Counted from the stretch's first letter, positions 1-35,947 are shown. The stretch: 64,000 nt of DNA from Escherichia coli (GCF_017348835.2 NZ_CP071375.1), one strand, 5' to 3'. Notes: generated by a model from the letters alone, not told the origin. Numbers and translations: made by a program.

Positions 1-92
1 GTCACCGCGATTTATGCACGGCTTGAATGTATTGCTGATGTTAACTCAGGATGAAGCCAGGTAGATAGCGTAAGATGTGATTCACGATGGTA

Positions 93-491
93 TTAAACAA
101 ATGCTTTAGCAAAGGAAGGGTCAAATGGTCCCTCTTTCACCTCCATCATGAGAGCACGAGGAGACAAGCATTTGACACTGTGTATGTCTCCCGGAGAAAA
201 CTCCACAATGTTAATTTCTGTATTTTCTCCGACAATAAATTGCTTAACGACTTCTCCATCTTTGCCATGCAAACAAACCTGAAGCTGGCCCTGCATGACG
301 ATAAACATTTCCCACTGATGAGGAAGTTCATGGAAATGAGGTTCTACATAGCTACTACTGACCAGGGCAATGAGTAGTCGTTGCACCTTATCCTGATGCG
401 AACTATGCATCAAAAGATGGGAACGCAGGCGCTCGGATTGCTCTGCTTGTTCGTATAATGCCTCAAGCTGGTCATTATCAATTAATCGCAT
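93..491 (-). CDS. wbuC: WbuC-like small cupin-type protein, the usual companion of wbuB in L-FucNAc O-antigen clusters
   Basis: 132-aa ORF at the distal end of the O-antigen operon, directly downstream of and overlapping the wbuB-like gene; assigned by recognition and synteny. Confidence 0.65.
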   Translation of the reverse strand: MRLIDNDQLEALYEQAEQSERLRSHLLMHSSHQDKVQRLLIALVSSSYVEPHFHELPHQWEMFIVMQGQLQVCLHGKDGEVVKQFIVGENTEINIVEFSPGDIHSVKCLSPRALMMEVKEGPFDPSFAKAFV

Positions 492-1692
492 TGCATGCCT
501 CCAGCCTCATTTCTATCGTCCGCGCCGCAGACTCAACGGAGAACTGCTCTTTTAACAACTTGTTCGCGCCCAGACCAAATCGCTGGCGCGCATCAATGTC
601 ATAAAGCATTAACAGCGCAGAATGGTAAAGCTTGTCATCCTCTCCATTGATATGGATTAATCCTGCGTTATTTTGATTGACGATGTCGAGCAGATCATTT
701 CCAGCATTCACGCTACCTAATATAGGTAGAGACTGAACCATGTAACCTAACAACTTACCCGGAAAATTGTGAGAAGAGTGTTTGGCAGAAAGAGAAAACA
801 GGCCTATATCCATTTCCGATAAGATGAACTTAAATTCTTCCTGATTCACCGAAGCCAGATACGTGAAATTCGACAATGCCCACTCAGTAGCCAGAGAGTT
901 AATTAATTCCACTTCATCACCCTGGCCAATGAACAGGAAATGAGCTTGTGGATGCTCTGCCATACTTCGGGCAAGACGCATAAGATTTGCCATATCCTGT
1001 GCATGCCCGATATTTCCTCCATAGAAGAAAATCACTTTATCCTCTAGACCGAGGCGCTTACGCAGTGGCACATATTCTGGGGATAATACCGTCGGCGTGA
1101 GAGATGCCCAGTTACGTAGAACTTCGCAAGGATAGCCCTTGTTTGTCACCCGAAAAACATCAAGGTTTTTATCAGACATGAGTCCAATACGGTTTGCCTG
1201 ACGATAAGATGATCTTTCAAAGAGACGAAAATAACGTTCAATTGGGGATCCCTCTTTTAGCATTCCAGCATCAATTACCCATTGAGGAAACATATCTCTC
1301 AATATTAAATAAGCCGGACATTGGCAGCGGGCTTTAATCTTCTTAACTAAATGCCCCCAAAAAATAGACGGTGAGTAATAAACCACACCATCGAAAGTTT
1401 CTTCTTCTATCCGGCTTTTAATAGATTTCCAGGCCCGCCAAGACAAAAGTGTTTCATTGATGGCTCGCTGAACTTTACTTACATCCTTGAGCGGACCACT
1501 TTTAAAACGCCATGTTTTGACACCCTGAAAGCTGTCAAACGACACCTCTTCTTGCAGGCTTGTATCAGGAGTAATTACCGTAACATCATGGCCACGGCGA
1601 ATAAATTCCTGAGCTAACTCATGAAACATTTTTGCACCAACACGGGTACTATTGGGCAGGTAATCATCTATGATTAAAGCAAGTTTCATCAA
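478..1692 (-). CDS. wbuB: GT4-family glycosyltransferase, WbuB-like (L-FucNAc transferase)
   Basis: 404-aa ORF immediately downstream of fnlABC, the conserved position of wbuB in FucNAc-containing O-antigen clusters; start overlaps fnlC stop. Confidence 0.75.
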
Positions 1693-2819
1693 TATTCTTT
1701 CCAGACGACTCTCTTGACGTAATCTGTATAAGAGTGAACGATTCTGACGACCTTATCCGACACATTTGGCATACTGTAATCACTAACCTGCCGTAAGAGA
1801 CGGGTCTCCCCGCGAGGTTGTGTCGACAAAATTTCAAGCGCCTGAAGCACGCGTTCACACTCCAGTCCCACCATCATGACGGATGCTTCCTCAAAGCCCT
1901 CCGGACGTTCATGTGCTTCCCGGATGTTTACAGCAGGAAAATTCATGATGGATGACTCTTCAGTAATTGTGCCGCTGTCTGACAACACAGCACGTGAATT
2001 CTTTTGCAGGTGATTGTAATCATGGAAACCTAACGGTTTCAGCAGATTAATATTTGGGTGGAATTCAATCCCTTGCTCATTAATACGATTACGCGTCCGC
2101 GGATGTGTGGATACAATGACTGGCAGATCATATTTTTCGGCAATGGTATTTAGAATGGTCGCAAGCTTGATGAGTTGCTTCGGAGAATCGACATTCTCTT
2201 CACGGTGTGCGCTAACGACAAAGAATTCACCAGGGCGCAAATTTAGACGTGACAACACATCCGAACCATCAATTTGAGGCATATAGTACGAAAGCACTTC
2301 AAACATAGGGCTGCCGGTTTTAATGATCCGATCCGCCGGGATACCTTCAGCCAGGAGATATTCACGCGCAATATCGCTGTAGGTCATATTGATGTCAGCC
2401 GTATGATCAACAATTCGTCGGTTAGTTTCTTCAGGTACACGCTGATCGAAACAACGGTTGCCAGCTTCCATATGGAAGATAGGCACTTTACGACGCTTGG
2501 CAGGAATGGCAGAAATACATGAGTTGGTATCGCCCAGCACCAGCATTGCTTCAGGTTTTTCGGTTTCTAATACTTCATCAACTTTGATGATAACCTGACC
2601 AATGGTTTCCGCCGCATTTTTCCCTGCAGCGTTTAAGAAATAATCTGGCTTACGGACACCAAGATCGTTAAAGAATACTTCGTTCAACTCATAATCATAA
2701 TTTTGCCCAGTATGGACAAGAATATGCTCACAATGTTCGTCAAGTTTGACCAAAACACGTGATAAACGGATGATTTCAGGACGTGTCCCAACCACAGACA
2801 TAATTTTTAATTTTTTCAT
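1689..2819 (-). CDS. fnlC: UDP-N-acetylglucosamine 2-epimerase, non-hydrolysing (FnlC/Cap5G type)
   Basis: 376-aa ORF beginning [19 protein letters not shown], the typical N-terminus of non-hydrolysing UDP-GlcNAc 2-epimerases; follows fnlA-fnlB. Confidence 0.85.
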
Positions 2820-3922
2820 TACAGAGGTCTCGCAATAGTATCAGGCTCATCACGATTGAAAATTTCGTTTGCCCAGAGCATAACTATTAATTCATCATTG
2901 CCAACATTCGTGACGTCATGGGTCCAGCCGGGTACTGTTTCAACGATTTTGAACTCATCGGATGAAACATTCAGTTCATAACGTTCACCGGTAATCACAT
3001 GTTCGAATTTGAAGCACGCCTGTCCACGGATGACCAGGAACTTCTCATTTTTGGTGTGATGATAATGCCCACCACGCGTTATACCGGGATGCGCTGTGAA
3101 AAATGAAAACTGCCCCGCTGAAGGCGTTTTTAACATCTCACAAAAGATCCCGCGGGCATCACCATAGGACGGCACCGTATAAGCAAACTTTTCGGCTGGT
3201 AAGTAACTTAACCACGTCGAATATAGCGCTCGGGTCATTCCCGTCCCCACAGCTTCTGTGACAAGCGTAGAACGACTCTCCTTGAAACGATAAAGTAATT
3301 CCGCCACCTCACCAACTGTCGTTGAGTAAACCGGCACAACGCCTTTATATCCGCTATGAACCTCTCCTGTGAGAAGTTTTATCGCATGTGTGCAAACGTC
3401 ATCGATATAAACCAGATTAACCGGTGCCGAAGGGTCATTGATGGTTATGTCAATATTGTTGGCAATGTTATGGCAGAAGGTAGCCACGAACGAGTTATAG
3501 TTCGGTTTACACCATTTACCAAAAACATTTGGGTACCGATAGATATAATATGCTGCACCACTTTCTGCTGCATAACGCTCAATTTGTTTTTCAGCTGCAG
3601 CCTTACTCTGACCATACGCATTATCCAGTTCAGCCTGGATCGAAGAACTGATCATAATAGGTATGCTTTTGTTCTTCGCTAACAGAGAATCCACAATCTG
3701 CTGAGTAAAATTGCAATTCCCTTCGACAAACTCTTCGACATTTTTAGGTCGATTGATACCCGCAAGGTGATAAATGAAATCCGCATCTTGCAGGCCAATT
3801 TCAAGCTCGGCCGCACTTGAGTCACGGTCAATCTTAACAAGGTCAACATACCCTGCTTCCTGAAGGCGTAAGCACAAGTTACGTCCGATAAAGCCATCAG
3901 CTCCAGTAATCAGGATTTTCAT
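2819..3922 (-). CDS. fnlB: FnlB/Cap5F-type reductase of the UDP-L-FucNAc pathway
   Basis: Rossmann N-terminus [16 protein letters not shown]. The ORF track starts 11 codons upstream (3955); the internal ATG at 3920-3922 lies 1 nt after the fnlA stop and is the likelier start. Confidence 0.8.
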
Positions 3923-3923
3923 G

Positions 3924-4958
3924 TCAGGCGTCCAGATCGTAATTTTCACCAGCACGCAGTGCGCGAATAAACGGCAACTTAAGAAGCAGCGTTTTCATCC
4001 CTTCTACATCCAGTCGCTGTGTATTATGGGAGTTATAATCTTCAACAACGGAGATACGGCTGTCACCTTGTTCTACATATTTTCCGTAGTTAAGGTCACG
4101 CAAATCAGGTGGTACGCGATAGTAATCACCCATATCGATGGCCGCAATCATCTCTTCACGGCTCAGCAGCGCTTCATAGAGCTTTTCTCCATGGCGGGTA
4201 CCAATGACATTGACAGGATGGTGCTCGACATTCAGAAGCTCTTTCAGAGCAATTGCTAATGTTTCAATCGTAGCTGCAGGCGCTTTTTGTACAAAAATGT
4301 CGCCATTATTACCGTGCTCAAATGCATAAAGCACCAGATCGACAGCATCCTCAAGGGTCATCATGAAACGAGTCATGTTTGGATCAGTGACAGTCAGCGC
4401 TTTACCTGCTTTGATCAGATCAACAAACAGCGGAATCACCGAACCACGAGATGCCATAACGTTGCCATAGCGAGTACCACAAATCACCGTTTTATTGCTG
4501 TTTACATTTCGGGATTTAGCGACCATGACTTTCTCCATCATCGCCTTAGAGATACCCATGGCATTGATTGGATAAACCGCTTTATCAGTACTTAAACACA
4601 CAACGCGTTTTACTTCGTTTGCAATTGCAGCTTCGAGAACGTTTTCGGTGCCGAGCACGTTAGTCTTAACCGCTTCCATTGGATGGAATTCACATGATGG
4701 CACTTGTTTAAGGGCGGCAGCATGGTAGATAAAATCAACGCCACGGCTGGCATTGAGTACACTGCGATAATCCCTGACATCGCCTATGTAAAACTTAAGC
4801 TTCTCACTATTGTATTTCTTGCGCATATCATCTTGCTTTTTTTCATCGCGCGAGAAAATGCGAATTTCTTTAATATCAGTTTCCAGAAAACGATTTAAAA
4901 CTGCATTTCCAAAGGAACCTGTTCCGCCTGTAATCAAAAGCACTTTATCTGAAAACAT
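3924..4958 (-). CDS. fnlA: UDP-GlcNAc 4,6-dehydratase/5-epimerase (FnlA/CapE type)
   Basis: 344-aa ORF with LLITGGTGSFG N-terminus and extended SDR fold, as in FnlA/CapE/WbjB; first gene of the fnlABC triplet. Confidence 0.85.
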   Translation of the reverse strand: MFSDKVLLITGGTGSFGNAVLNRFLETDIKEIRIFSRDEKKQDDMRKKYNSEKLKFYIGDVRDYRSVLNASRGVDFIYHAAALKQVPSCEFHPMEAVKTNVLGTENVLEAAIANEVKRVVCLSTDKAVYPINAMGISKAMMEKVMVAKSRNVNSNKTVICGTRYGNVMASRGSVIPLFVDLIKAGKALTVTDPNMTRFMMTLEDAVDLVLYAFEHGNNGDIFVQKAPAATIETLAIALKELLNVEHHPVNVIGTRHGEKLYEALLSREEMIAAIDMGDYYRVPPDLRDLNYGKYVEQGDSRISVVEDYNSHNTQRLDVEGMKTLLLKLPFIRALRAGENYDLDA

Positions 4959-4978
4959 TTAATACCTCTTAAGAAATC

Positions 4979-6082
4979 TTATAACTTATCAATGCTGCGC
5001 ATGTACATTAAGGCCCTTTCTTTAGCCGTTGGAAGCTTGCTAAAAATTAAGTCGGCCTTTTCTTGCTTTATCACTTTATCGTGTACGCCTTCAACTCCAG
5101 AAATGATTTTGTCACAAATATCATTGGCATCATAAGGATCAAAATATATTGCGCTGTCGTCACACACTGTATGAGCAAATGGTAGATCAGACGTGAAGAT
5201 CATTTTTTTGAAATACATGGCTTCTACATAACTGGCACTGAAACACTCCAGTAACGTTGGCAAAAATAGTGCATCACAATAATGATATAATGCTGGACAT
5301 TGATTAATGGAAACTGGCCCAACATTAATTACACGATGGCTATACCGTTCGGGAATATCCGCCATCGAAGAACTTAACGTAACAATGAACTTGTAATTAT
5401 CTGGCAATAACTCAATTAGCTTGGGTATCACGGTTAGGTTTTTGTGAGGATAATCATGTGAAATTGTCAGAAGGTAAATGTCCCCCACATTCCTCTCCGG
5501 TAAATCGTCTAAGATACTATTATCGTATAAATCCTCATTCTGCAAAATCGCATTGATTGTATTAGGAACAGTGACGACATGACTGTCCTTAAAATGATAT
5601 TGTTCCACAAGTTTATTTTTAGCATCATCAGTTTCAACAAATATAAGATCTGCATTTTTTTTATAAAAATAAGGTTGTAGGCGCAGTAAAAGTATCTTTT
5701 TTACCTTTTCACAAAAACTTAACTTCGGAAATACTTGGCTCACATCATAAATCAGCCATGGCAACGCGAATCCAACGGCATGCTTAACATTCTTCGGGCT
5801 CCAGTAACTTGGGCCAAATATCGTAAAGACTTTCGTAATTTTATTTTCAGCAACGAGCTGATCTAAATCTCGTCTTGATTCAACATTGAACACATTTGAT
5901 GGTGTTTTTCTGATAATTTTGCATCTTGATAGTGTTTCTCCTGAGAGTTGTTTCGCAACTACAGGTGAAACTGCTGCAATGAAATGTTGCCCACCTTTAG
6001 TTAACTCTTCTAATACAGATACAGCAACCTGAACACCACCACCCACATACAGATTAGATGCATTAATCAGCAAACTCATCAA
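4979..6082 (-). CDS. Glycosyltransferase, GT1/GT4-like (specificity unknown, possibly a hexose transferase)
   Basis: 367-aa ORF between wzy and fnlA in the O-antigen operon; AT-rich; assigned by position and general resemblance to GT-B glycosyltransferases. Confidence 0.6.
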   Translation of the reverse strand: MMSLLINASNLYVGGGVQVAVSVLEELTKGGQHFIAAVSPVVAKQLSGETLSRCKIIRKTPSNVFNVESRRDLDQLVAENKITKVFTIFGPSYWSPKNVKHAVGFALPWLIYDVSQVFPKLSFCEKVKKILLLRLQPYFYKKNADLIFVETDDAKNKLVEQYHFKDSHVVTVPNTINAILQNEDLYDNSILDDLPERNVGDIYLLTISHDYPHKNLTVIPKLIELLPDNYKFIVTLSSSMADIPERYSHRVINVGPVSINQCPALYHYCDALFLPTLLECFSASYVEAMYFKKMIFTSDLPFAHTVCDDSAIYFDPYDANDICDKIISGVEGVHDKVIKQEKADLIFSKLPTAKERALMYMRSIDKL

Positions 6083-6129
6083 TATCTTCCCTTATTTTAA
6101 CTGCTATAGACATCTTCGTCGAAAAAGGA

Positions 6130-7443
6130 TTATTTTTTAGGTGTATTTTCTATCCTTCGAGGCTCGACTTTTCTAATGAGCAGCAAAAGGAACAACACAA
6201 TTAAGTATGGAATGATTAAGACAAATTCCCCAAAGAAATAGTTTCCAAACAGCATAAACACGATCGCTTTCATAAAACACGCCTGTAACAGACAATATTT
6301 AATATTGCTGGATGTTTTATTGTAGATAATTTGAAGCAATAAGCCAATAATAAATGAATAGAGTATTACACCAGCTAATCCTAGATCATTATAGAAATAG
6401 TATATAAATGTTTTTGCATTGAAAAAACCAACCTCATAGTCAGTGAACCCCATGGAGTTACTATCGTAATAGGTACCAAAGAACGGCTTAAGAATAAACT
6501 TAAGACCACCCCATATATATGTGGGTTCGAATGATGAGTTAATTAATAAATTCAGATTCTGAAAATTCATTGCAACATAGGTGTAAATCTGGCTAAAAAG
6601 CGAATTTGCCATCCCATCACCAAATTGAGTAGAGGCGCGACTTGTTTCTGAAATCCGCATTGCACCGATATACAAAAGCAATGCCATCGGTAGCATAACC
6701 ATCATTAGTTGTTTGAACCCTAGCGTAATTTTACGTGGAATCAGAAAAATATAGATGGCACCTAACATGAATACTAAAAATTCTCCCCTTGATACCTCAT
6801 AAACCAATGCAACTACAATACTGAAAAAAACATAGGATAGAAGGAAATACTTTCTCACACGCCCTTGTCGATATGAGTACTTAAGTTCAAATAGAGCAGC
6901 AAGTGCTATGTAAGGCATTGATACATCTATGAAATTCAACAACGGAGGCGCATTTGGAACTAATGATTTTAAATCACTTCCTGCACCAGACAGAAGTGGT
7001 GGATTAGTGAGCATCACTCCAAAGCGCATAAAGAAAGCAACGACTGATAAAGCTACAATAAAATTAAAAAATACGCGATAAAATAAGTTAAAGTCAAAAC
7101 GCTGAAAACTAAAATTATTTTTATCTATCTTTTTTGAAAATACAAATGGGGCAACAAAGAAAACACCAGCAAGTAAAATAGCACTTAGTGTTTCCAGACT
7201 TAATTCTGATTGCAATTGATGGTCATACAGAATATCAACCGTAGACAGGGAAGCTGAGAAGTACCAAAAAACAATACCAATTCCAAGAGGATGAATAATA
7301 TCTTTTGTTTTTAAAACAATTAAAGAATATAAGACCAAAGCTATTATAAAGAATGCAATTGAGATCATAATGGGCTCTACCGCGAATTTACTTATTATTA
7401 TACGCGAGATGCTTTGCGCGCGAAATGAAATAACAATAACCAA
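6130..7443 (-). CDS. wzy: O-antigen polymerase Wzy (polytopic membrane protein)
   Basis: Very hydrophobic 437-aa ORF with many predicted TM segments, adjacent to wzx. The ORF-track start overlaps wzx by 56 nt; the true start may be the internal Met near 7368. Confidence 0.6.
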   Translation of the reverse strand: MVIVISFRAQSISRIIISKFAVEPIMISIAFFIIALVLYSLIVLKTKDIIHPLGIGIVFWYFSASLSTVDILYDHQLQSELSLETLSAILLAGVFFVAPFVFSKKIDKNNFSFQRFDFNLFYRVFFNFIVALSVVAFFMRFGVMLTNPPLLSGAGSDLKSLVPNAPPLLNFIDVSMPYIALAALFELKYSYRQGRVRKYFLLSYVFFSIVVALVYEVSRGEFLVFMLGAIYIFLIPRKITLGFKQLMMVMLPMALLLYIGAMRISETSRASTQFGDGMANSLFSQIYTYVAMNFQNLNLLINSSFEPTYIWGGLKFILKPFFGTYYDSNSMGFTDYEVGFFNAKTFIYYFYNDLGLAGVILYSFIIGLLLQIIYNKTSSNIKYCLLQACFMKAIVFMLFGNYFFGEFVLIIPYLIVLFLLLLIRKVEPRRIENTPKK

Positions 7444-10172: not shown

Positions 10173-10257
10173 TAAATTTAACTACCTCTTCATTTCCAAA
10201 ATGCAAATGTAAAAATCAACATTTCAAACTTAATATTCATTCAATAAATGATAAAAA

Positions 10258-11022: not shown

Positions 11023-11023
11023 T

Positions 11024-11725
11024 TTAATTACATTCCTTTTTCATCGTTAGAATGGTTTCAGCCATAAGAAAATCATAAATATCATCGATATCAACAGCTC
11101 TTTCCTTCGGAACTTCAACCGAAGTAACATTCCCTGAAAACAATCCAATATTATTCAGAATAAATTCGGGAGTTGAGACATAAACGACGGTAGTAATATC
11201 GAACACATCAGGACAGTCCTGACGTCTTGAGACATCCCCTTCTGGGCTAATTACTAACTCATTCAAGCCATTGCTGTTGATTTTGACCATATTAAAATAT
11301 GGACTACGTGATGCTGGCGTTACTGCGATACAGATATCTGCATCTGTTTGCATGCGTTTAGCAATGGCACGTTCAACATCCTGCACTTCTCGCAATGGAC
11401 TCGTGGCGGGAAGGCTGACAAATTGTCCAAATGCCCCGTAATGCTCAGTTACCCACTCAATAGCATGGCGCCACGCAAACCACTCAGGACTTTTATCACC
11501 AGAAAGTTCATCAGGTCTGTCAATGACAACAACATCTTTTAATTCTAATGCTTTTTGTTTAATGTCTGCGTCATCTGTGGAGACAAATACTTTATCAATT
11601 GATGGGGACAGTTGTGCAATCTCGATTGCATAGTGTAATAAAGGCTTTCCACATAACTCTTTTATGTTCTTCCCTGGCAGGCCTTTAGAGCCTCCGCGAG
11701 CAAATATAAAAGCATAATTTTTCAT
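11024..11725 (-). CDS. legF: CMP-nonulosonic acid synthetase (acylneuraminate cytidylyltransferase family; CMP-legionaminic acid synthetase-like)
   Basis: 233-aa ORF with N-terminus FIFARGGSKGLPGKNI, characteristic of NeuA/LegF cytidylyltransferases. Confidence 0.75.
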   Translation of the reverse strand: MKNYAFIFARGGSKGLPGKNIKELCGKPLLHYAIEIAQLSPSIDKVFVSTDDADIKQKALELKDVVVIDRPDELSGDKSPEWFAWRHAIEWVTEHYGAFGQFVSLPATSPLREVQDVERAIAKRMQTDADICIAVTPASRSPYFNMVKINSNGLNELVISPEGDVSRRQDCPDVFDITTVVYVSTPEFILNNIGLFSGNVTSVEVPKERAVDIDDIYDFLMAETILTMKKECN

Positions 11726-12688
11726 TTATTCTGCCAACTTTTTTATCCGATTAACTAATGCGATGGTTTTAACTGCATCAGTCAATTTGATGCATTGATT
11801 CTCGCGCCCATGTATATAGTTATCAAAATCTTTCAACATATCCAAATACATGGTGTTTTTATCGTATTGCGGTTCATTATAAATCAAACACTCATCTGAT
11901 TTATTAATTAATTTCACTTGATTATTGATCAAATCCCATTCTACCCGTCCATCTGTACCTAAGAAACTACATTTCCTGAACGCTTTTTTCTGTAGAAAAT
12001 CCAAATGAATATTGACAACGATTTCATCTTTTGAAATAGCAATAATATCTGCTATATCTTCAACATCGATATCAAGCACACCGGAATTTCGGACTGTAGC
12101 ATGGAGAACATCTAGCTCGCCAAAAAGCCAGCGTGTATAATCCAATTCATGGCTTAACTCCAGGAGAGCCCCACCACCCAAAGCTTTATTAGCTGAGACA
12201 CTTTCTTTATAGTTTTTACTAACACGCCAGTCCGGGAGATACTGTCCGATCTCGATAAAGGCGTTAAATATTCTGCCTGCTTTCTTCTCTTCTAAAACTC
12301 TTTTTAACGAAAGCGCAGAGGGCAAATAGCGCAAACAATACCCAACAGCGACTACCGAATTAAAACGCATTGATGCATCCAGTAATGCCTCTGCATCAGA
12401 CGTCGATACCGTAACAGGTTTCTCAATTAGAACAGGTATACCGGCTTTAATAAATGGTATGGCATGTCCAGCGTGTAACGTTGCTGGAGATGCTATAATA
12501 GCCATATCAACAATATCTAAGAGTTCATCTATGATATTTACTACCTGATCACAATCACTTATTTCACCATGAATTTTGCGTCCAGAGGCTGACATCGCAT
12601 AAACTTTGATACCGGGATAAACTTTTTTGAGATTGCGACGATGTCTGTCTGCAATATTACCTAATCCAATCACCGCAACTGCTTTCAT
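11726..12688 (-). CDS. ptmF: Gfo/Idh/MocA-family oxidoreductase, PtmF-like
   Basis: 320-aa ORF with N-terminal NAD-binding fold (MKAVAVIGLGNIADRH); sits between ptmE-like and legF-like genes as in Campylobacter-type leg clusters. Confidence 0.65.
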   Translation of the reverse strand: MKAVAVIGLGNIADRHRRNLKKVYPGIKVYAMSASGRKIHGEISDCDQVVNIIDELLDIVDMAIIASPATLHAGHAIPFIKAGIPVLIEKPVTVSTSDAEALLDASMRFNSVVAVGYCLRYLPSALSLKRVLEEKKAGRIFNAFIEIGQYLPDWRVSKNYKESVSANKALGGGALLELSHELDYTRWLFGELDVLHATVRNSGVLDIDVEDIADIIAISKDEIVVNIHLDFLQKKAFRKCSFLGTDGRVEWDLINNQVKLINKSDECLIYNEPQYDKNTMYLDMLKDFDNYIHGRENQCIKLTDAVKTIALVNRIKKLAE

Positions 12689-13746
12689 TAGTCAAAACCT
12701 AGTGTAAAGTAATCTACCTGCGCCCTTTTGAAGTCATCCATTCTACCGATATCCAACCAGTACTCATGTATAGGGAACATAAGGATGTTTTCATTATTAT
12801 CCATATGCTCTTCAAGAAGAGTTGGCATATCAATACGATGATTTTTAGGCACTGCTTTGAAGATTTGTGGTGACACAACATAGATCCCTGCATTGACGAA
12901 AAATCGGTGTACAGGCTTCTCTTCCATCGAGATGATTTTATTTCCATCCCCTTTTATGACGCCATAGGGAATTTGATAATCATATTCGCGTACACACATA
13001 GTTGCGTCAGCTTTGCTTTCTATGTGGAATTTAATCAAACGCTCGTAATCAACATTGGTCAAGACGTCGCCATTTATCATGATGAGAGGATGTTCATCCG
13101 ATAAATCTTCAGGTAACAAACCTAAAGCACCGCCAGTGCCCAGCGGTTTTTCTTCATGTACATAGCGGATTTTTGAATCAAACCGCTCACCATCACCGAA
13201 ATGTTCTTTGATAATCTCAGGCATATAGTGAGTCGAGATATAGAAATTATTAAACCCAGCTTTAACAAAACTGCGAATTACGGTTTCTAATATTGGCTTA
13301 CCACCGATACAAAGCATGGGCTTTGGGCAGGAATCCGTTAATGGTTTTAATCTTGTTCCAAATCCGCCAGCCATGATAAACACAGGGTTAGGATATTTTT
13401 TCTTATTATTTACTGACTGGATAGTCTCCAGACCGATTACTTTACCATCGCGAAGGATAGGAACAGACAAAATCCCTTTTACTTTCATCAGCGTGTTTAA
13501 CTCGGCTGAAGAAACACTACTGGTCGCTGTGACTGGCTGAGTATTCATGACCTGTGAAGTTTTAGCCGAGAGATCCAGATTATTCAGCAATCCCCTTCTG
13601 ATGTCTCCATCAGTGATGACACCTAATAAATTATTTTCATTATCAACAACTAACGCGATACGTAGAGCTTCACGGTTAATAATTTCGAGCGCTTCACGCA
13701 GTGAGCTGTCCGGTCGGATCAGCACATTTTTCCAATGCTGCATCAT
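12688..13746 (-). CDS. ptmE: CBS-domain sugar-phosphate nucleotidyltransferase, PtmE-like (GlcNAc-1-P guanylyltransferase type)
   Basis: 352-aa ORF with N-terminal CBS pair (LLGVITDGDIRR) followed by a nucleotidyltransferase domain (FIMAGGFGTRLKPLT); this architecture is diagnostic of the GDP-GlcNAc route to legionaminic acid. Confidence 0.7.
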   Translation of the reverse strand: MMQHWKNVLIRPDSSLREALEIINREALRIALVVDNENNLLGVITDGDIRRGLLNNLDLSAKTSQVMNTQPVTATSSVSSAELNTLMKVKGILSVPILRDGKVIGLETIQSVNNKKKYPNPVFIMAGGFGTRLKPLTDSCPKPMLCIGGKPILETVIRSFVKAGFNNFYISTHYMPEIIKEHFGDGERFDSKIRYVHEEKPLGTGGALGLLPEDLSDEHPLIMINGDVLTNVDYERLIKFHIESKADATMCVREYDYQIPYGVIKGDGNKIISMEEKPVHRFFVNAGIYVVSPQIFKAVPKNHRIDMPTLLEEHMDNNENILMFPIHEYWLDIGRMDDFKRAQVDYFTLGFD

Positions 13747-13766
13747 GAATTACCTTTTGTAAGACA

Positions 13767-14402
13767 CTATTTGATAACCGATCTTGCCGGATAGCAAACT
13801 TGCCCATTATCTAACGACTGCACTAATACTGCGCCAGCACCCACCATTGAATTACTGCCTAGTATCATCCCAGGGATTATTGTGGAACCTGCCCCCACAA
13901 AAACTGATTCCCCCGTTTTAACCTGCCCGCACAACACCGCACCGGGTCCAATAAAGCTGTGATTTCCTATCTGGCAGTCATGTTCAATAATCGCACGGGT
14001 ATTAATTATTGAATGGCTACCAATTACTACCCCAGGATTGACTATCGTTCCTGACAGAACTTGGGCCCCGTTCATAATATGGGCATGTGCGGAAATTAAT
14101 GCATCTTTAGCAATTACACTGGCAAATTGATATCCATGGCGAAGATAGGATTCCGTAACATTCTTTCTTACCGAAGATCGCGGAACCATACCGATGCCAT
14201 TAACTAATTCAATGTCTTTATTTGAGTACTGAAAAATATCGTCATCAGTGCGGAATACTTTGATTCCAGAAAAAATTGTTCTTGCGGGGACATCATGCGG
14301 ACTCACAACAGCGATAACTTCCCGCATGTTTGAATTCAGAATGTCCAGTAGGACACTGGCATGGCCGCCACCACCAATAAGAACAACAGGTTTGCTATTC
14401 AA
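13767..14402 (-). CDS. legH: Hexapeptide-repeat N-acetyltransferase (LegH/NeuD/PglD family)
   Basis: 211-aa ORF with N-terminal VLIGGGGHASV and C-terminal left-handed beta-helix repeats; overlaps legI start by 8 nt. Confidence 0.7.
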   Translation of the reverse strand: MNSKPVVLIGGGGHASVLLDILNSNMREVIAVVSPHDVPARTIFSGIKVFRTDDDIFQYSNKDIELVNGIGMVPRSSVRKNVTESYLRHGYQFASVIAKDALISAHAHIMNGAQVLSGTIVNPGVVIGSHSIINTRAIIEHDCQIGNHSFIGPGAVLCGQVKTGESVFVGAGSTIIPGMILGSNSMVGAGAVLVQSLDNGQVCYPARSVIK

Positions 14403-15468
14403 TAATCAGATCTCCCGGCAAATATTCTTTTGTTGATATTTTTTCCAGGATATCCCAGTAGCTATAAGGCGACATCCCGTTTCCAGGTCTCTTGATTGTA
14501 ACATTCGACGCGGTAAAAGTTTCCCCCGCTCGAATTTTCTGCGCAGCCACCAGACTTTTTCTCGCAACCGACTTGTTTTTAATTTCTGAAACGGTTGGTG
14601 CTTTGACCTTATTTCCTAGCGCTATTTCTATTTGCCTGATCGCTTTTACCATTGCGGCCAGTTCATCAGGTTCAAGTGAAGCTTTATGATCCGGACCTTC
14701 CATATTTTTATCTAGCGTGAAATGTTTCTCAATAATCACAGCCCCTCTGGCAACGGCTGCTACAGGGATAGCTATCCCCTCGCTGTGATCGGAATAGCCC
14801 GCAGGAAGGTCAAAAGCTTCTCGTAAGGAATCCATTGCTCTCAAGTTAATTTCACCCATTGGCGCAGGATATTCAGTCGTACAGTGAAGAATTGTCACTT
14901 TCTCTTTCAGCAACTTCTGACCTTCACGTGTTGCATAGGCTCTTTCAAAGGCTTCGATACAAGGTTTTTCATCCTTTGAACTGATATATCCGAATGCGAT
15001 AACACCCAAAGCAGCTTCTATTTCAGAAAGAGTGGCCATCCCCGTTGAAACAATAATATCGCAACCTGTTCTGGCATGTTCCAGAACCAACGGTGCATTG
15101 GTGAGCTCACCAGAAGGCAATTTCAAGCGTTTGATTCCAAGATCATTCACCAGGAAATCAAGGCTTTCTGAATCAAAGGCCGTGGAAAGAAATTCTATCC
15201 CCAATGCTTCACAATGCTTAACCAATGCATGATGCGCTTCCCATGACAGTTCAAGACGGCTTAGCATCGCTAGTTGCGATTCCTGTCGTTGAGTATTCGC
15301 CACCTGATAATCGGCTTGCTTTGCCTGTTCGGTCACCAGGTTTTTCGCTTTAAACGTCTGGAACTTAACAATATCAGCCCCGGCCTTATAAGCAGCATCA
15401 ACAAGTTCAAAAGCCAGTTTTTCGTCGCCGTTGTGATTAACACCGGCTTCAGCAATGATAAGCGTCAT
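14395..15468 (-). CDS. legI: Nonulosonic acid synthase (NeuB family; legionaminic acid synthase-like)
   Basis: 357-aa ORF, MTLIIAEAGVNHNGD N-terminus, TIM-barrel NeuB signature and C-terminal antifreeze-like/SAF domain. Confidence 0.85.
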   Translation of the reverse strand: MTLIIAEAGVNHNGDEKLAFELVDAAYKAGADIVKFQTFKAKNLVTEQAKQADYQVANTQRQESQLAMLSRLELSWEAHHALVKHCEALGIEFLSTAFDSESLDFLVNDLGIKRLKLPSGELTNAPLVLEHARTGCDIIVSTGMATLSEIEAALGVIAFGYISSKDEKPCIEAFERAYATREGQKLLKEKVTILHCTTEYPAPMGEINLRAMDSLREAFDLPAGYSDHSEGIAIPVAAVARGAVIIEKHFTLDKNMEGPDHKASLEPDELAAMVKAIRQIEIALGNKVKAPTVSEIKNKSVARKSLVAAQKIRAGETFTASNVTIKRPGNGMSPYSYWDILEKISTKEYLPGDLIIE

Positions 15469-15474
15469 ATAGTT

Positions 15475-16644
15475 TCACTTGATGTCGTAGAACGTCTTGC
15501 CGGGAACAAAATGCATGGACTTAATCATCTCAATGATTTTCGAACTTGCATCACCCTGGCCATAAGGATTCGCAATGTCTTCATCGCGGTTTTTATAACT
15601 GCGCGTAACCGCAATTCTTAATGCCTTCGCAATCGACTCCGTCGTTGCAGGGCAATTCAACACGCTTCGGGCAGCCAACCGGCCTTTTTGCCTTTCGCCA
15701 ATGTTAACGGTAGGAACATCAAACGCAGGAACTTCAATAATCCCGCTGGAGGAATTACCTACCACTGCCGCTGCATACTTCACAGCACTGAGATAGCGCA
15801 CCTGTCCTAAAGAAGGAATCGCCAGCACACGCTCGGGTTGTCTGGCAGCATAGGCTTCGAGCAAGGGAATGATCTTTCTGCCACCATCATCTGCGTTGGG
15901 ATAGGTCAGGATGACCTGATACTCCGGGTACTCATCAAGCGCCGCTAACAACGCGTTAAAACTTGCTTCTGCAGGCTCGTCACCCAGAGTGACAGGATGA
16001 TACGTCACCAGTAAGAATGGTTTTCTAAGCGGGAATTTCAGCGAGACACCTAATTCCTCAACAGACATAAATTGTCCGCGCTTGAGATGATCCAGCCCAA
16101 TTGCGCCAACATTGACTACGCGAGAAGGATCTTCCCCTAGCTGGATAACACGATTCCGATAGGCCTCTGTTGAAGTTCCATGTAAATAACTCAGTTTAGT
16201 AATCGCGTGTCTGATCGCATCGTCGTAGGCACCCTCCGTAATTTCCCCACCATGTAGATGCAGAATGGGAATACGGAGAATCATCGCCGTCTGTGCCGCT
16301 GCAAGAGCTTCAAAACGGTCCCCGAGTATCACTAAAATATCCGGCTTTAATCTGTTCAGGGCATCAGCAAAACCCAATATCCCCAGCCCCATGCTTTTTG
16401 CAGTCCCTACTGCCGTATCCGAAGAAAGCAATATATCAATCTTCTCATCAATTGAAAAACCGTCTTTCTCAATCTGCTGCCAGGTATTTCCAAACTCGGG
16501 CGAGAGATGCATACCACTAACGAGAAGCTGAAGTTCCAGCTCTTTGTCATCCTGGATATCTTTCAACAGCCAGTAGAGCAAGCCATATTCAGCTCGCGTG
16601 CCGGTAAATACCGCAACTTTACGTTTTGCTGACCCCATTACCAT
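15475..16644 (-). CDS. legG: Hydrolysing NDP-sugar 2-epimerase (NeuC/LegG family)
   Basis: 389-aa ORF with NeuC-like N-terminus (KVAVFTGTRAEYGLL); start codon overlaps legC stop by 1 nt (translational coupling). Confidence 0.8.
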   Translation of the reverse strand: MVMGSAKRKVAVFTGTRAEYGLLYWLLKDIQDDKELELQLLVSGMHLSPEFGNTWQQIEKDGFSIDEKIDILLSSDTAVGTAKSMGLGILGFADALNRLKPDILVILGDRFEALAAAQTAMILRIPILHLHGGEITEGAYDDAIRHAITKLSYLHGTSTEAYRNRVIQLGEDPSRVVNVGAIGLDHLKRGQFMSVEELGVSLKFPLRKPFLLVTYHPVTLGDEPAEASFNALLAALDEYPEYQVILTYPNADDGGRKIIPLLEAYAARQPERVLAIPSLGQVRYLSAVKYAAAVVGNSSSGIIEVPAFDVPTVNIGERQKGRLAARSVLNCPATTESIAKALRIAVTRSYKNRDEDIANPYGQGDASSKIIEMIKSMHFVPGKTFYDIK

Positions 16645-17786
16645 TACTCCATTGGAGAGCTAGGTATGTTGATCAGGCGAGCTTCAATCTGTTCAGAGTT
16701 CTTGAGATCATCACGCATTGCATGTTCAAACATTGGCAGACGGTGCATCAATTTCCAGATTGGGCGAACCATTACTTTGGCTTCATTCATTTGTACCAGC
16801 ATTGCATCACGGGCATCCATGTTTTCACAAATGATGGCATTCAGCCAGAAGTTTGACTGAGCATATTCAGGTTCTTTCACGAACCTGAACTCTGACCCGG
16901 CAAAAAATGCCTCATAGCGCTGAGCCAACTCACGTTTTTGTTTCAGGAACGAATCAAGGCGTTCCATCTGCCCACACCCAAGCGCAGCGTTGAGGTTTGG
17001 CATACGATAGTTGAAACCTGGTTCATCATGATAAAACTCGTAGGGATGCGGTACTTTTGCTGTCGTAGTGACATGTTTCGCACGAACACCCGCTTCTGAC
17101 GAGCGACAGAGGACCATTCCGCCACCACCGGTCGTAATAATTTTATTGCCGTTAAAGCTTAACGCTCCATAGTCACCGAGCGTACCGGTGTGTTTACCCT
17201 TGTAGAAAGAGCCCAGACTTTCAGCCGCATCTTCAACAAGAACGATGTGCCACTTCTGGCAAACGGTAATAAGCTCATCCAGCTCAACCGGATGACCAAA
17301 GGTATGCATAGGCACCACAGCACGTACAACCTGCCGTGTTTTACGGTGCACACATCCTTTTTCTGTCAGCTCGGTATTTTCAGATAACCAATTATCAAGT
17401 GCGACCGGGCACAGCCCCATACTCACCGGAGAGACATCGGTAAACACCGGCTCAGCTCCCAGATGATAAAGCGCATTGCAGGTTGCAATGAAGGTCAGTG
17501 CCTGAGTGATAACAAGATCACCTCGCTTAACACCTGCCAGGTATAACGCTGCGCTTAACGCGGCTGTTCCGTTAACCGTTGCAACCGCTCTCGCCGTTCC
17601 GGTGTAAGATTCCATTTTACGTTCGAAATCATCGACATATTTACCGACGCTCGACACGAAAGTACTGTCCAGAGTATCCAGAACATATTTTTTTTCGTTG
17701 CCATTAAACACTGGCGCATGCAAAGGAATAAATTCATCCGTTTTGTATACGTCGCGAACAAATTCGATAATTGATTTGATATTCAT
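16644..17786 (-). CDS. legC: PLP-dependent aminotransferase, DegT/DnrJ/EryC1 family (LegC-like)
   Basis: 380-aa ORF of the sugar-aminotransferase family; placed between dehydratase and 2-epimerase genes. Confidence 0.8.
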   Translation of the reverse strand: MNIKSIIEFVRDVYKTDEFIPLHAPVFNGNEKKYVLDTLDSTFVSSVGKYVDDFERKMESYTGTARAVATVNGTAALSAALYLAGVKRGDLVITQALTFIATCNALYHLGAEPVFTDVSPVSMGLCPVALDNWLSENTELTEKGCVHRKTRQVVRAVVPMHTFGHPVELDELITVCQKWHIVLVEDAAESLGSFYKGKHTGTLGDYGALSFNGNKIITTGGGGMVLCRSSEAGVRAKHVTTTAKVPHPYEFYHDEPGFNYRMPNLNAALGCGQMERLDSFLKQKRELAQRYEAFFAGSEFRFVKEPEYAQSNFWLNAIICENMDARDAMLVQMNEAKVMVRPIWKLMHRLPMFEHAMRDDLKNSEQIEARLINIPSSPME

Positions 17787-17801
17787 TCGGGGATGCCTTG
17801 C

Positions 17802-19016
17802 TTACATTTTGCTGTCGAGGTATTTACCTGTTTCTTTATGTCTGAAGTCAGGGATCATTTCAAAAAACAGTTTTACAATATCGTCTTTATTCCATTCCAG
17901 AGATGCTTTCATCTCTTCGATACGTTCTTCAAAGTGGGCCAGAAGCGCAGGGTCATATAAAGGTTCATTCTTGATAATGCCCAGATTGTTAAAACGCTCC
18001 ATATCAAGCGTTTCATTATCGGTGAAGAACTCCTCGAAATCTTTCTCACCTGTCGTATCACTTGAGGTAAACAAACATGGCCATTTACCTTGTGCTGGCA
18101 GGGTTTTAGCAAGCTCACGAGCTTCGTCTTCGGTTTCACAAAGATGAGGCTCATAACCACGTTGCTTAAGGTAGAGAACCGCAATATCGGCAAAAGAAAT
18201 GAGGTGTAATGCTTCACTCAGTTTCGGGAAGAAGATGTCACGATTATCACCAAAAATACATGACATCAGACAGAGCTCACCTGATTCCTGAGGGGTGACG
18301 AAATAACGCTTGATATCATTCGGTGCAACCAGGGGTTGCTGCTTGTGGAGGCGTTGATTGAACCCATGCAGAAGGGAGCCATCAGAAAAGGCTACGTTCG
18401 CGAAACGTGCAGTAGAGATGGCGATTTGTTCACTTTTACGCATCAGGAACATTTCCATAATACGCTTAGAAGCGCCCATCATATTTACCGGATTCGCGGC
18501 CTTGTCGGTCGATACGCAGAAGAATTTCTTAACGCCAGCAGCAATAGACTGCTCAATGGTTTTGTCAGTATTGAGAATATTGACTTCAATCATGCGCATC
18601 AGGGTAAACGGATCTTTCTCACTGCGAACATGTTTCAGGGCAGATAAATTCAGAACGTAATCATATTTACCGTCAGCTTTGATAAAAGCGTCGTATTCTA
18701 CAGAGCCGATATCAAGCGCGAACGTCTGGAAATCACCAGCAATATAACCGAAGGAACTGCGTATATCACGAACCAACTCAACCATGTTGTTTTCGCTAAT
18801 ATCGACAACATGCAGTTTCTGAGGATTGCGTTTAAATATTTCTTTTACAACAGCCTGACCAATAGAGCCAGCACCGCCAAGTACAAGGAAGCGTGATTCG
18901 GAAACGATTTTTTTTAATTCTTTTTCATTTTCAGAAACATCATCACTGAATAATTCTTTATTACGCCCAATCAATTGGAGGATATTATACATTTCGAGAT
19001 CCAGTTTGTTACTCAT
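17802..19016 (-). CDS. legB: NDP-GlcNAc 4,6-dehydratase, extended SDR (LegB-like)
   Basis: 404-aa ORF with Rossmann motif VLGGAGSIGQAV; first gene after the JUMPstart/ops element, i.e. promoter-proximal gene of the O-antigen operon. Confidence 0.7.
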   Translation of the reverse strand: MSNKLDLEMYNILQLIGRNKELFSDDVSENEKELKKIVSESRFLVLGGAGSIGQAVVKEIFKRNPQKLHVVDISENNMVELVRDIRSSFGYIAGDFQTFALDIGSVEYDAFIKADGKYDYVLNLSALKHVRSEKDPFTLMRMIEVNILNTDKTIEQSIAAGVKKFFCVSTDKAANPVNMMGASKRIMEMFLMRKSEQIAISTARFANVAFSDGSLLHGFNQRLHKQQPLVAPNDIKRYFVTPQESGELCLMSCIFGDNRDIFFPKLSEALHLISFADIAVLYLKQRGYEPHLCETEDEARELAKTLPAQGKWPCLFTSSDTTGEKDFEEFFTDNETLDMERFNNLGIIKNEPLYDPALLAHFEERIEEMKASLEWNKDDIVKLFFEMIPDFRHKETGKYLDSKM

Positions 19017-35175: not shown

Positions 35176-35190
35176 CGTTTTCCCTTATAT

Positions 35191-35937: not shown

Positions 35938-35947
35938 GTTCTTATTC

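Follow-up and report, generated by a model that had tools for sequence, protein, structure and literature searches.

The window considered here is the whole stretch of DNA that was analysed, i.e., 64,000 nt from Escherichia coli (GCF_017348835.2, NZ_CP071375.1). Positions 1-19,016 of this window constitute the gene cluster for the O antigen in E. coli O108, consisting of 18 genes, all on the minus strand, found between galF and gnd. The start of gnd is 22 nt to the left of window position 1, as seen in an identical genome (F2_81). Genomes annotated as O108 match the locus at 100% DNA identity over 20.4 kb, including at the serogroup-specific wzx and wzy, which are 100% identical to those of genomes carrying the RefSeq ‘O108 family’ names, and a JUMPStart/ops element is located upstream of the first gene. 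It is this match between galF and gnd, together with agreeing domain content and the ops element, which identifies the locus as the Wzx/Wzy-dependent cluster of serogroup O108. Its features are as follows:

93..491, minus strand: wbuC, a WbuC-family cupin and last gene of the FucNAc block (NCBIfam TIGR04366, 141.6 bits versus a cutoff of 42; RefSeq); GC3.414
478..1689, minus strand: wbuB-type GT4 glycosyltransferase (Pfam Glyco_transf_4 and Glycos_transf_1); GC3.408
1689-2819, minus strand: fnlC, UDP-L-FucNAc pathway (Pfam Epimerase_2; RefSeq wecB)
2819-3922, minus strand: fnlB/wbjC, UDP-L-FucNAc pathway (Pfam Polysacc_synt_C/Epimerase; RefSeq wbjC)
3924-4958, minus strand: fnlA, UDP-L-FucNAc pathway (Pfam Polysacc_synt_2; RefSeq fnlA)
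1689..4958, minus strand: the whole fnlABC block; GC.440-.447, GC3.41-.43
4979..6079, minus strand: glycosyltransferase, orf13 of the published cluster (Pfam Glycos_transf_1); GC.370, GC3.327
6130..7368, minus strand: wzy, O-antigen polymerase (NCBIfam TIGR04370, oligosaccharide repeat unit polymerase, 132 bits versus a cutoff of 40; RefSeq ‘O108 family O-antigen polymerase’); GC.337, GC3.312
7388..8590, minus strand: wzx, O-antigen flippase (RefSeq ‘O108 family O-antigen flippase’); GC.336, GC3.322
8583..10172, minus strand: orf10, a 529-aa KpsS/Gtr59-family protein (Pfam Capsule_synth PF05159, 27.6 bits versus a cutoff of 20); GC.342, GC3.283, the lowest GC3 of the cluster
10258-11022, minus strand: SDR oxidoreductase, PtmA-like, cassette tail (Pfam); GC.378, GC3.341
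11024-11725, minus strand: legF, CMP-sugar cytidylyltransferase, cassette tail (Pfam); GC.403, GC3.325
11726-12688, minus strand: Gfo/Idh/MocA oxidoreductase, cassette tail (Pfam)
12688-13746, minus strand: ptmE-like CBS and nucleotidyltransferase (Pfam NTP_transferase and CBS)
13767-14402, minus strand: legD/H N-acetyltransferase (Pfam Hexapep and PglD_N)
14395-15468, minus strand: legI/NeuB synthase (Pfam NeuB); GC.445, GC3.391
15475-16638, minus strand: legG/NeuC (Pfam); GC.485, GC3.477
16644-17786, minus strand: legC aminotransferase (Pfam); GC.470, GC3.459
17802-19016, minus strand: legB 4,6-dehydratase (Pfam); GC.418
19144..19182, minus strand: JUMPStart element with ops core GGCGGTAG (19147-19154), the operon head, by reading of the sequence
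19439..20332, minus strand: galF, upstream housekeeping flank of host composition; GC.508, GC3.550

The gnd end of the cluster holds a UDP-L-FucNAc module, as recognized by Pfam, NCBIfam and RefSeq, with FnlA, FnlB and FnlC followed by the GT4 transferase and the WbuC cupin. The GT4 product I take, by homology, to be an L-FucNAc transferase, as is wbuB in fnl-containing clusters. The galF end holds all nine Pfam domain types (9/9) of a lgaABCDEF/elaABC-type module, contiguous and co-oriented, that is, 4,6-dehydratase, aminotransferase, hydrolysing 2-epimerase, NeuB-type synthase, N-acetyltransferase, nucleotidyltransferase, Gfo/Idh oxidoreductase, cytidylyltransferase and SDR oxidoreductase. 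These nine genes are predicted to provide for CMP-8-epilegionaminic acid synthesis, such a module for 8eLeg having been described previously (PMC9676051), and their order is the same in O61, which is an 8eLeg-containing serogroup. The tail of this nonulosonic-acid cassette (10258..12688; GC3.32-.34) has its counterpart in the elaABC genes of Acinetobacter K loci and matches NCBIfam NF006619 (343 bits versus a cutoff of 255), while scoring below cutoff with the NCBIfam model for the PtmA equivalog (210 versus 350).

As to the genes lying between these modules, wzx had no Pfam or NCBIfam match in profile searches, its assignment being that of its RefSeq name, and its product is 82% identical at the amino-acid level to an Enterobacter mori orthologue. 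The orf13 product is a predicted alpha-D-Gal-(1->3)-L-FucNAc transferase (PMC4487303). That of orf10 is a predicted 8-epilegionaminic-acid transferase: Orf10 has 63% identity with Gtr59, which belongs to a family whose genes adjoin nonulosonic-acid modules (PMC4487303), and orf10 homologues adjoin Leg cassettes in loci L006, L027, L028 and L043. The cluster as a whole would make the O108 polysaccharide, whose repeat is known from the literature to be 8eLeg5Ac7Ac-Gal-L-FucNAc-GlcNAc, though with an anomeric assignment that may need reassessment (PMC4487303, PMC7685785).

The cluster is read as a single minus-strand operon, starting from the JUMPStart/ops element downstream of galF. This element is a conserved 39 nt within a 422-nt galF-legB spacer (spacer GC.382), with conservation of 97% in other loci and 90% in E. 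coli 14EC029. The O108 JUMPStart departs from the full 12-nt ops pattern, GGCGGTAGNNTG, in that its sequence ends in TA. Going by what is generally known of ops, the O108 operon presumably is RfaH dependent.

The O108 cluster is already published, first in 2010 and then in a re-annotation from Kenyon et al. 2015 (PMC4487303). The locus is the same, without sequence differences (100% DNA identity), and the unevenness of its composition is a known phenomenon, the classic one of common sugar-pathway genes, richer in GC, on either side of a type-specific, AT-rich core. What is added here is a quantification of that composition, an orthologous cluster in E. mori, a hybrid as found in MSI001-type strains, and phylogenetic discordance within a cassette.

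GC among cluster genes is.34-.49, versus.51-.56 in most flanking genes. For positions 1-19016 overall it is.408, versus.523 in the remaining window, with a cluster GC3 of.28-.48 versus a mean of.62. A first-pass annotation had noted this unevenness by eye, and as an observation it is confirmed: GC3 is heterogeneous among the 18 genes (chi2=88, 17 df, p=1.3e-11), and the uniform GC and codon usage which that annotation named as the contrary outcome is not seen, with segmentation and codon-usage tests showing blocks instead. The genes it listed as extremely AT-rich are so for wzx, wzy, the 529-aa gene, ptmA and the glycosyltransferase (GC.336-.378), but not for legF, which at 40% GC is low in GC3 alone. 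Its GC-richer legC, legG and legI have a GC of.445-.485, and its intermediate fnlABC one of.440-.447. Flanks of typical E. coli composition are a fair description of galF and of most wca genes (wcaL to wza: GC mostly.53-.56, GC3 mostly.60-.71), but not of wcaM (GC.480) or wcaD/E/F (GC.42-.49). The genes omitted from its list, legB, ptmE, legD and Gfo/Idh, fill in the gradient.

Adjacent genes are alike in GC3 (lag-1 autocorrelation 0.70, permutation p=1e-4). Unbiased change-point segmentation of third codon positions places cuts at window positions 15,295 and 4,860, giving three segments: legB-legG (GC3.452), legI to the glycosyltransferase (.331) and fnlABC-wbuBC (.423). Composition, that is, forms an arm-core-arm mosaic, with legB-legC-legG on the galF side and fnlABC-wbuBC on the gnd side as arms (GC3 ~.42-.45, with the same codon usage) versus a core extending from legI through the glycosyltransferase (GC3 ~.33). 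The legG-legC-legB or 5' arm (15475..19016) is the GC-richest part of the cluster (GC3.42-.48), the ptmE/legD/legI group (12688..15468) has a GC3 of.38-.39, and the fnlABC block is homogeneous (chi2 p=0.98). Codon usage differs between the fnl block and the central block (p=0.001) and between legB/C/G and the ptmE/legD/legI group (p=0.004), the blocks inside the Leg cassette having been partly chosen after the data were seen. It is indistinguishable between the fnl block and legB/C/G (p=0.62), and the ptmA/legF/Gfo tail likewise cannot be separated from the central block (p=0.95; GC3 p=0.36). Codon usage thus resolves two classes only, interleaved across functional modules. The Leg-side compositional boundary is found inside the nonulosonic-acid cassette, i.e., at ~15,295 (legG/legI), rather than at the cassette end, 10,257.

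Might all of this be ordinary gene-to-gene scatter, or simply a reflection of the amino-acid composition of membrane proteins, that is, without meaningful structure? In the adjoining colanic-acid (wca) cluster, GC3 does vary as much from gene to gene (sd.063 vs.056), and this cluster too fails the homogeneity test (chi2 p=1e-13). GC1 and GC2 are low in wzx and wzy, whose products are hydrophobic. What is distinctive about the O108 cluster is a drop of ~0.24 in mean GC3 plus the block pattern, rather than heterogeneity itself. The differences nevertheless remain when third positions or 4-fold sites are considered, are spatially blocked as noted, and recur: the per-gene GC3 profile is reproduced with r=.78 in E. 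mori, and the Leg cassettes of O61 and of Lelliottia likewise reproduce it, with rho.82-.90. A scatter-only reading is refuted by this cross-species reproducibility, leaving an absence of meaningful structure as highly improbable.

Per-gene trees (neighbor joining with simple distances, 18 taxa) also change within the Leg cassette. For legB, legC and legG only, the six Enterobacteriaceae copies are monophyletic, with 96-100% bootstrap. From legD through ptmA, that monophyly instead has 0-6% support and there are two deep clades, each with 100%, and ptmE, legD and legI group with the cassette-tail genes, apart from legB/C/G. The switch in trees at legG/legI coincides with the GC3 change-point at 15,295. 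The 5' arm, as seen in these trees, appears to have a history different from that of the rest of the Leg cassette.

The modules are real units of exchange among E. coli clusters. MSI001-type strains are 99.66% identical to O108 over window positions 1-4958 and 99.76% identical over 10258-19016, but possess a different three-gene central cassette between their FucNAc and Leg blocks. Over galF-wca the two are only 96.3% identical, which is below the 99.7-99.8% of the cluster blocks they have in common. The limits of this O108/MSI001-type cassette swap, as located by alignment and BLAST, are as follows:

4934..4958, no strand: right breakpoint, within the first ~25 nt of fnlA
10257..10258, no strand: left breakpoint, directly after the ptmA-like gene's stop codon

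At the right breakpoint, seven mismatches are clustered at 4935-4952 and BLAST homology stops at 4958. In E. coli 14EC029 the same fnl-wbuB-wbuC block is joined to a neuDBAC sialic-acid block, with its divergence from the O108 fnl block increasing stepwise (~0.2%, 4%, 15%) from the gnd end inward, and in O61 the same nine-gene Leg cassette accompanies other processing genes. Among 5426 E. coli genomes, the fnl block (at least 80% identical) is found in 176, the Leg block in 9-15 and the central block in 5. The Leg, FucNAc and central gene sets are separable units of exchange, that is, found in other combinations, and exchange at the locus goes by homologous recombination. Exchange units and compositional units agree, however, at one of two junctions only: the GC3 change-point at 4,860 is ~100 nt from the right breakpoint, but the left breakpoint at 10,257 is no compositional boundary.

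A rival model would have three cassettes, from three donors of differing GC, joined together at this locus, with present-day GC representing un-ameliorated donor signatures. Segments of this kind are conventionally read in that way (PMC3715488). Consistent with this, the nonulosonic-acid, FucNAc and processing gene sets each occur separately in other clusters, and all three are well under host GC3. Against it are the two rather than three codon-usage classes, the boundary falling within the Leg cassette, and the closest relatives of all 18 genes, which belong to other Enterobacteriaceae, whose genomes have 50-55% GC, rather than to low-GC taxa. Also against it is a cluster in Enterobacter mori LMG 25706, where galF and gnd enclose all 18 genes in unchanged order, colinear with O108 and with proteins 76-97% identical. 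Synonymous divergence (NG86 dS, with estimates near saturation) is 0.9-3.0 in the cluster versus 1.0-3.2 in the flanks, and 4-fold-site identity is.469 versus.457. As the cluster is just as diverged at synonymous sites as its flanks, the mosaic is an ancient one and is not drifting towards host composition; as both the 18-gene order and the GC3 profile are present in E. mori, assembly predates the split of the cluster between E. coli O108 and E. mori. The mosaic is old, that is, rather than a recent assembly in the O108 lineage. Equal divergence of cluster and flanks is no proof of vertical descent.

With regard to recently acquired genomic islands, the O108 cluster resembles these in deviating from host composition but not in recency of arrival, given that E. 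mori has an orthologous cluster in this position, with a 4-fold-site identity equal to that of its flanks. RefSeq annotates no integrase, transposase or tRNA gene at the O108 locus. The literature searched contained no report of this O108/E. mori pair. Joining of three donors' cassettes here seems improbable. The first-pass interpretation, modules of different origin, is partly supported: the gene sets are separable (MSI001-type, 14EC029, O61), but composition marks two classes, not three, and assembly from three origins in the O108 lineage is unsupported. Per-gene phylogenies, which it had proposed, do reveal a change of history, but inside the nonulosonic-acid cassette rather than at a module end.

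GC3 declines with dN (Spearman rho for E. coli -.79, with p=1e-4, and for E. mori -.51), and since GC3 tracks protein constraint in this manner, GC differences alone are no proof of different donors. Indeed, protein constraint could alone give the pattern, either by codon-usage selection or by relaxed selection under AT-biased mutation. Each gene's GC3 would then be an equilibrium of selection strength, re-forming in any host, with conserved enzymes retaining G/C-ending codons and with fast-evolving, low-expression membrane proteins and glycosyltransferases decaying to an AT-rich equilibrium, or else being kept AT-rich so as to limit expression. The profile has been kept after more than one synonymous substitution per site, and cluster GC3 has not tracked that of the host: from E. 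coli to E. mori it shifts by -0.016, versus +0.10 in flanks (Mann-Whitney p=1.4e-4), with galF rising to.699 and cluster genes showing no such shift. That wzx and wzy usually are lowest in GC ‘needs explanation’, as put by Reeves et al. (PMC3715488). The same Leg genes nonetheless differ widely in GC3 between hosts (legB-ptmE:.58-.64 in Oceanimonas, ~.30 in Psychromonas and V. xiamenensis), so there is no fixed gene-intrinsic value, and discordance at legG/legI indicates that history differs as well. Constraint of this gene-specific sort is a less likely explanation, one that is compatible with, rather than exclusive of, an arm-core-arm account.

That account is as follows. The arms would consist of pathway genes that are common to many O-antigen types, and for this reason may provide the internal homology by which recombination exchanges one O type for another. 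Having been repeatedly exchanged and homogenised among Enterobacteriaceae, and being more strongly constrained, they would lie nearer to host composition. The core, as type-specific, would almost never meet a homologous partner and therefore would remain AT-rich. The causal step, I infer, is that sharing and recombination would raise GC3. Overall, a Wzx/Wzy-dependent O108 cluster with an arm-core-arm mosaic that arose from these causes is the probable reading. It is also conceivable, if rather doubtful, that AT-richness and the gene-by-gene profile represent an equilibrium which the O-antigen locus maintains, rather than a fading foreign mark. Were that so, then flanks having moved to host GC3 while the cluster kept its values, at equal 4-fold turnover, would imply a locus-specific force. 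Candidates would be an absence of GC-biased gene conversion, given that type-specific genes seldom encounter a homologue, a relaxation of selection while mutation is AT biased, or selection favouring either low expression or control by RfaH/H-NS, and GC3 would be graded by sharing (core 5, Leg 9-15 and fnl 176 of the 5426 genomes).

Among known systems, the GC segments of Salmonella enterica rfb are all under host GC, with wzx, wzy and glycosyltransferases lowest and pathway genes intermediate (PMC3715488). The same genes are lowest in both cases, at 28-37% GC in Salmonella and 34-37% in O108. Salmonella rml displays a gradient, with its flank side higher in GC and tracking species and its specific-gene side lower in GC and tracking O type or serogroup (PMC3715488). 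O108 is similar in both respects, except that the gradient runs through the nonulosonic-acid cassette rather than rml, and unlike the rml case there is a second arm, fnl-wbuBC, at the gnd end. The lgaABCDEF/elaABC module of Acinetobacter baumannii may be likened to that of O108 by architecture, i.e., a six-gene core, a three-gene 8eLeg-specific tail and then a KpsS-family transferase gene. The former, however, is found in a capsule K locus and the latter in a galF-gnd O locus, and the compositional and phylogenetic break in O108, at legG/legI, is away from the lga/ela junction. Lastly, 23 pairs of E. coli and Salmonella O-antigen clusters are thought to have descended from a common ancestor (PMC3715488). 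The O108/E. mori pair is like these in being colinear, with the same flanks and housekeeping-like divergence, the partner genus in this case instead being Enterobacter.

The first 20,400 nt of the window match five complete E. coli genomes from end to end of this stretch, at 99.7-100% identity, and RefSeq names the wzx and wzy of those genomes 'O108 family'. Gene order, based on the identical genome F2_81 and consistent in its names with Pfam and NCBIfam scans, is as follows:

Minus strand, start: galF, legB, legC, legG (neuC), legI (neuB)
Minus strand, continued: acetyltransferase, CBS-nucleotidyltransferase, Gfo/Idh oxidoreductase, cytidylyltransferase, SDR oxidoreductase
Minus strand, continued: 529-aa KpsS/LipB-like protein, wzx, wzy, glycosyltransferase
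Minus strand, end: fnlA, fnlB (wbjC), fnlC (wecB), GT4 (wbuB type), wbuC, gnd
19,144-19,182, galF-legB spacer: JUMPStart element, ops core GGCGGTAG

The cluster along with its polysaccharide (8eLeg5Ac7Ac, Gal, L-FucNAc, and GlcNAc) is that of Perepelov et al. 2010 (PMC4487303, PMC7685785). Kenyon et al. place the 529-aa gene (their orf10) in the Gtr59/KpsS nonulosonic-acid transferase family and give the Gal-FucNAc linkage to the glycosyltransferase at 4979-6079 (their orf13; PMC4487303). Scans of 1-19,500 found 53 promoter-like sites versus 53.0 expected and 19 terminator-like sites versus 15.6 expected. Neither is thus enriched, and nothing at the module junctions points to separate transcription units. 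The only full match to the ops pattern (GGCGGTAGNNTG) in the window is at 43709-43720 on the minus strand; it lies upstream of wza, where the colanic-acid cluster starts and where ops is expected for that operon. The 85-nt spacer between the ptmA-like and 529-aa genes (10173-10257) has a GC content of only 20%, and alignment finds its outline kept in Enterobacter mori.

Across the cluster, GC per gene ranges from.336 (wzx) to.485 (legG) and GC3 from.283 (529-aa gene) to.477 (legG), as compared with flanking GC3 values of.55 for galF and.57-.71 for most wca genes. GC3 is heterogeneous among the 18 genes (chi2=88, p=1.3e-11), with adjacent genes alike (lag-1 autocorrelation.70, permutation p=1e-4). 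When third positions were concatenated and searched for change points by likelihood, with no blocks set beforehand, three segments emerged:

19,014-15,298, minus strand: legB, legC, legG; GC3.452
15,295-4,863, minus strand: legI through glycosyltransferase; GC3.331
4,860-93, minus strand: fnlABC, wbuB, wbuC; GC3.423

The gene-by-gene contrast between AT-rich and GC-richer genes that was reported in the first-pass annotation is thus essentially right. Its description of legF as 'extremely AT-rich' holds for GC3, which is low, but not for overall GC, which is 40%, and several intermediate genes are missing from its list. Its view of the flanks as typical in composition likewise applies to galF and most wca genes but not to wcaD/E/F or wcaM. 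That is, wcaF, wcaE, and wcaD (34627-37165; GC.42-.49, GC3.48-.51) as well as wcaM (20507-21901; GC.48) lie clearly below the remaining colanic-acid cluster, and the 'typical' flank therefore is itself compositionally patchy. Indeed, because GC3 scatters between colanic-acid genes as much as between O108 genes (sd.063 vs.056), heterogeneity by itself is unremarkable. What is distinctive in the O108 cluster is the overall depression of GC3 along with its block pattern. A gradient with position in the operon was ruled out, as GC3 drops and then climbs again.

From these contrasts it had been proposed that the locus was assembled from three modules of different origin, i.e., a nonulosonic-acid cassette, a FucNAc cassette, and serogroup-specific processing genes. 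Composition, however, does not match the modules. Codon usage, as compared by RSCU with permutation tests, falls into two classes only: the fnl block does not differ from legB/C/G (p=.62), nor does the central block (529-aa gene through glycosyltransferase) from the ptmA/legF/Gfo tail of the nonulosonic-acid (Leg) cassette (p=.95), while the two classes are mutually distinct (p=.001-.004). The step in composition at 15,295 falls within the Leg cassette, and the breakpoint at 10,257 that is defined by E. coli MSI001 is not at a compositional boundary. Composition blocks thus should not be read as functional modules or as donors, since two codon-usage classes interleave across three modules and a boundary falls inside the sugar cassette.

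The modules nevertheless are, as comparison among genomes shows, real units of exchange. Four E. coli records (MSI001, FDAARGOS_1277, CREC_5, and ECZP248) match with 74% query coverage at 99.4% identity. In MSI001, positions 1-4,958 match at 99.66% and 10,258-19,016 at 99.76%, with three unrelated genes in place of the four central ones (8475-12310 of locus L004, the MSI001 cluster, NZ_CP076645.1; GC.28-.33, plus a 371-nt spacer); the same three-gene cassette is found in the other three records. Both breakpoints are sharp, one within the first ~25 nt of fnlA and the other directly behind the ptmA-like stop codon. In the galF-wca region, identity between O108 and these strains drops to 96.3%, and the swap, or instead spread of the cluster, therefore is recent relative to strain backgrounds. 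Proteins of the replacement cassette are 61-76% identical to those of Trabulsiella guamensis, which also carries fnlABC (89-97%) and legB/C/G/I (80-91%). Pfam gives nothing significant for the three genes (one sub-threshold chance match, two without any); from RefSeq name, hydrophobic sequence, and T. guamensis identity, they are predicted to encode a flippase-like protein, a Wzy-like protein, and a third protein of no assigned role. The T. guamensis homologue of the Wzy-like protein is in two pieces in different frames (residues 1-225 and 245-377; 13635-14763 of its locus, L016), which indicates a frameshift or assembly error. As RefSeq puts no serogroup name on MSI001-type cluster genes, this may be an O genotype without assignment.

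A second hybrid is E. coli 14EC029 (4001-17840 of its locus, L003; NZ_CP024141.1), in which a sialic-acid block, neuD-neuB-neuA-neuC-type, is joined to an O108-type fnl-wbuB-wbuC block. Its WbuC is identical to that of O108, and divergence then rises stepwise toward fnlA (~0.2% over 1-1,500, ~4% over 1,750-3,000, and ~15% over 3,000-4,948), which is a textbook recombination gradient. O61 has the nine-gene Leg cassette in the O108 order but different processing genes. Of 5,426 complete E. coli genomes, 176 have an fnl block of at least 80% identity, nine the Leg cassette (plus six O61-type partial matches), and five the central block.

E. mori LMG 25706 (GL890777.1, about 35.0-55.0 kb) carries all 18 O108 genes in the same order between galF and gnd, with nearly equal gene lengths and 76-97% protein identity. 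NG86 dS is 0.9-3.0 for cluster genes and 1.0-3.2 for wcaL, wcaM, galF, and gnd; because these values are near saturation (and wbuC gives none), main reliance is on identity at 4-fold sites, which is.469 for the cluster and.457 for the flanks, versus ~.28 expected at random. Per-gene GC3 nevertheless is correlated between the two hosts (Pearson r=.78, p=1e-4). Flank GC3 is 0.05-0.15 higher in E. mori than in E. coli, whereas the cluster is shifted by a mean of only -0.016 (Mann-Whitney p=1.4e-4). The mosaic thus predates separation of the O108 and E. mori copies, and has persisted without decay since. A simple assembly from three donors within E. coli is not supported, as codon usage forms only two classes and the whole mosaic is old and common to E. 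mori. Two JGI metagenomes (3300013102, 3300027606) and one Logan assembly (SRR25209430) also contain a Wzx identical to that of E. mori. O61 (rho=.82) and Lelliottia (.90) show the 5'-high/3'-low GC3 gradient of the Leg cassette too, as do Marinomonas, Endozoicomonas, and Oceanimonas, but several Vibrio-like hosts do not.

Per-gene phylogenies differ, and the break is at legG/legI, inside the nonulosonic-acid cassette. Trees were neighbour-joining, with 200 bootstraps, on 18 taxa that were recovered by scanning 100,044 species genomes for LegI. With legB, legC, and legG, the six Enterobacteriaceae copies (O108, E. mori, Lelliottia, O61, Citrobacter, and T. odontotermitis) form a single group at 96-100% support. 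That support is 31% with legI and 0-6% with legD, ptmE, Gfo, legF, and ptmA; from legD to ptmA the copies fall instead into two deep clades, O108 + E. mori + Lelliottia versus O61 + Citrobacter + T. odontotermitis, at 100% each. On these trees, legB/C/G therefore have been homogenised among Enterobacteriaceae and the rest of the cassette has not. The internal boundary of the Leg cassette is thus phylogenetic as well. The lga/ela junction (ptmE/Gfo) was dropped as a compositional step in O108, since change-point and tree discordance are both at legG/legI.

That junction had been expected because many loci lack ela-like tail genes and because Oceanimonas steps sharply there. In Oceanimonas marisflavi, GC3 is.58-.64 in legB, legC, legG, legI, and ptmE and.29-.31 in Gfo, legF, and ptmA, which suggests that the three-gene tail arrived separately there. 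Vibrio sp. ES.051 has two LegI-containing loci ~24 kb apart on one contig (NZ_PDJL01000006.1), their LegI proteins being 80% and 75% identical to that of O108.

These patterns are best read as an arm-core-arm arrangement. Pathway genes at both ends, common to many O types, serve as the homologous stretches through which recombination exchanges the middle, as MSI001 and 14EC029 show. Arm genes are more conserved and nearer to host composition, with the type-specific middle remaining AT-rich; sharing along with recombination, we infer, leads to higher GC3. From a different perspective, the GC3 pattern might reflect constraint-driven codon usage, to which the correlation of GC3 with dN (rho=-.79) lends weight. 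This is a live rival, though one compatible with arm-core-arm rather than exclusive of it. On a more interesting reading, the AT-richness may be a maintained equilibrium, since cluster composition ignores the host despite flank-level synonymous turnover, but the data do not establish this.

Descriptions of GC-content segments in O-antigen clusters go back to the first rfb sequences, with lateral origin the standard reading. The O108 locus is published and the phenomenon classical; the present description is correct but routine. New details are the orthologous E. mori cluster, the MSI001-type hybrid, the legG/legI discordance, and a cluster composition that does not follow the host despite synonymous turnover equal to that of the flanks. 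No publication on the O108-like cluster of E. mori was found, nor anything specific linking Enterobacter to 8-epilegionaminic acid or O108. By-products are modest in use. MSI001/O108 is a clean natural cassette swap, with breakpoints placed to a few nucleotides, and bears on the origin of new O types. It also affects in-silico serotyping, as MSI001-type strains would have 74% of the O108 locus in common, and marker-poor schemes could take them for O108.

The E. coli O108/E. mori pair in turn is a direct test bed for the persistent AT-richness of wzx, wzy, and glycosyltransferase genes. Reeves et al. (PMC3715488) note that wzx and wzy usually are lowest in GC, which 'needs explanation', and the Salmonella rml genes that they describe behave as do the O108 arms versus core.
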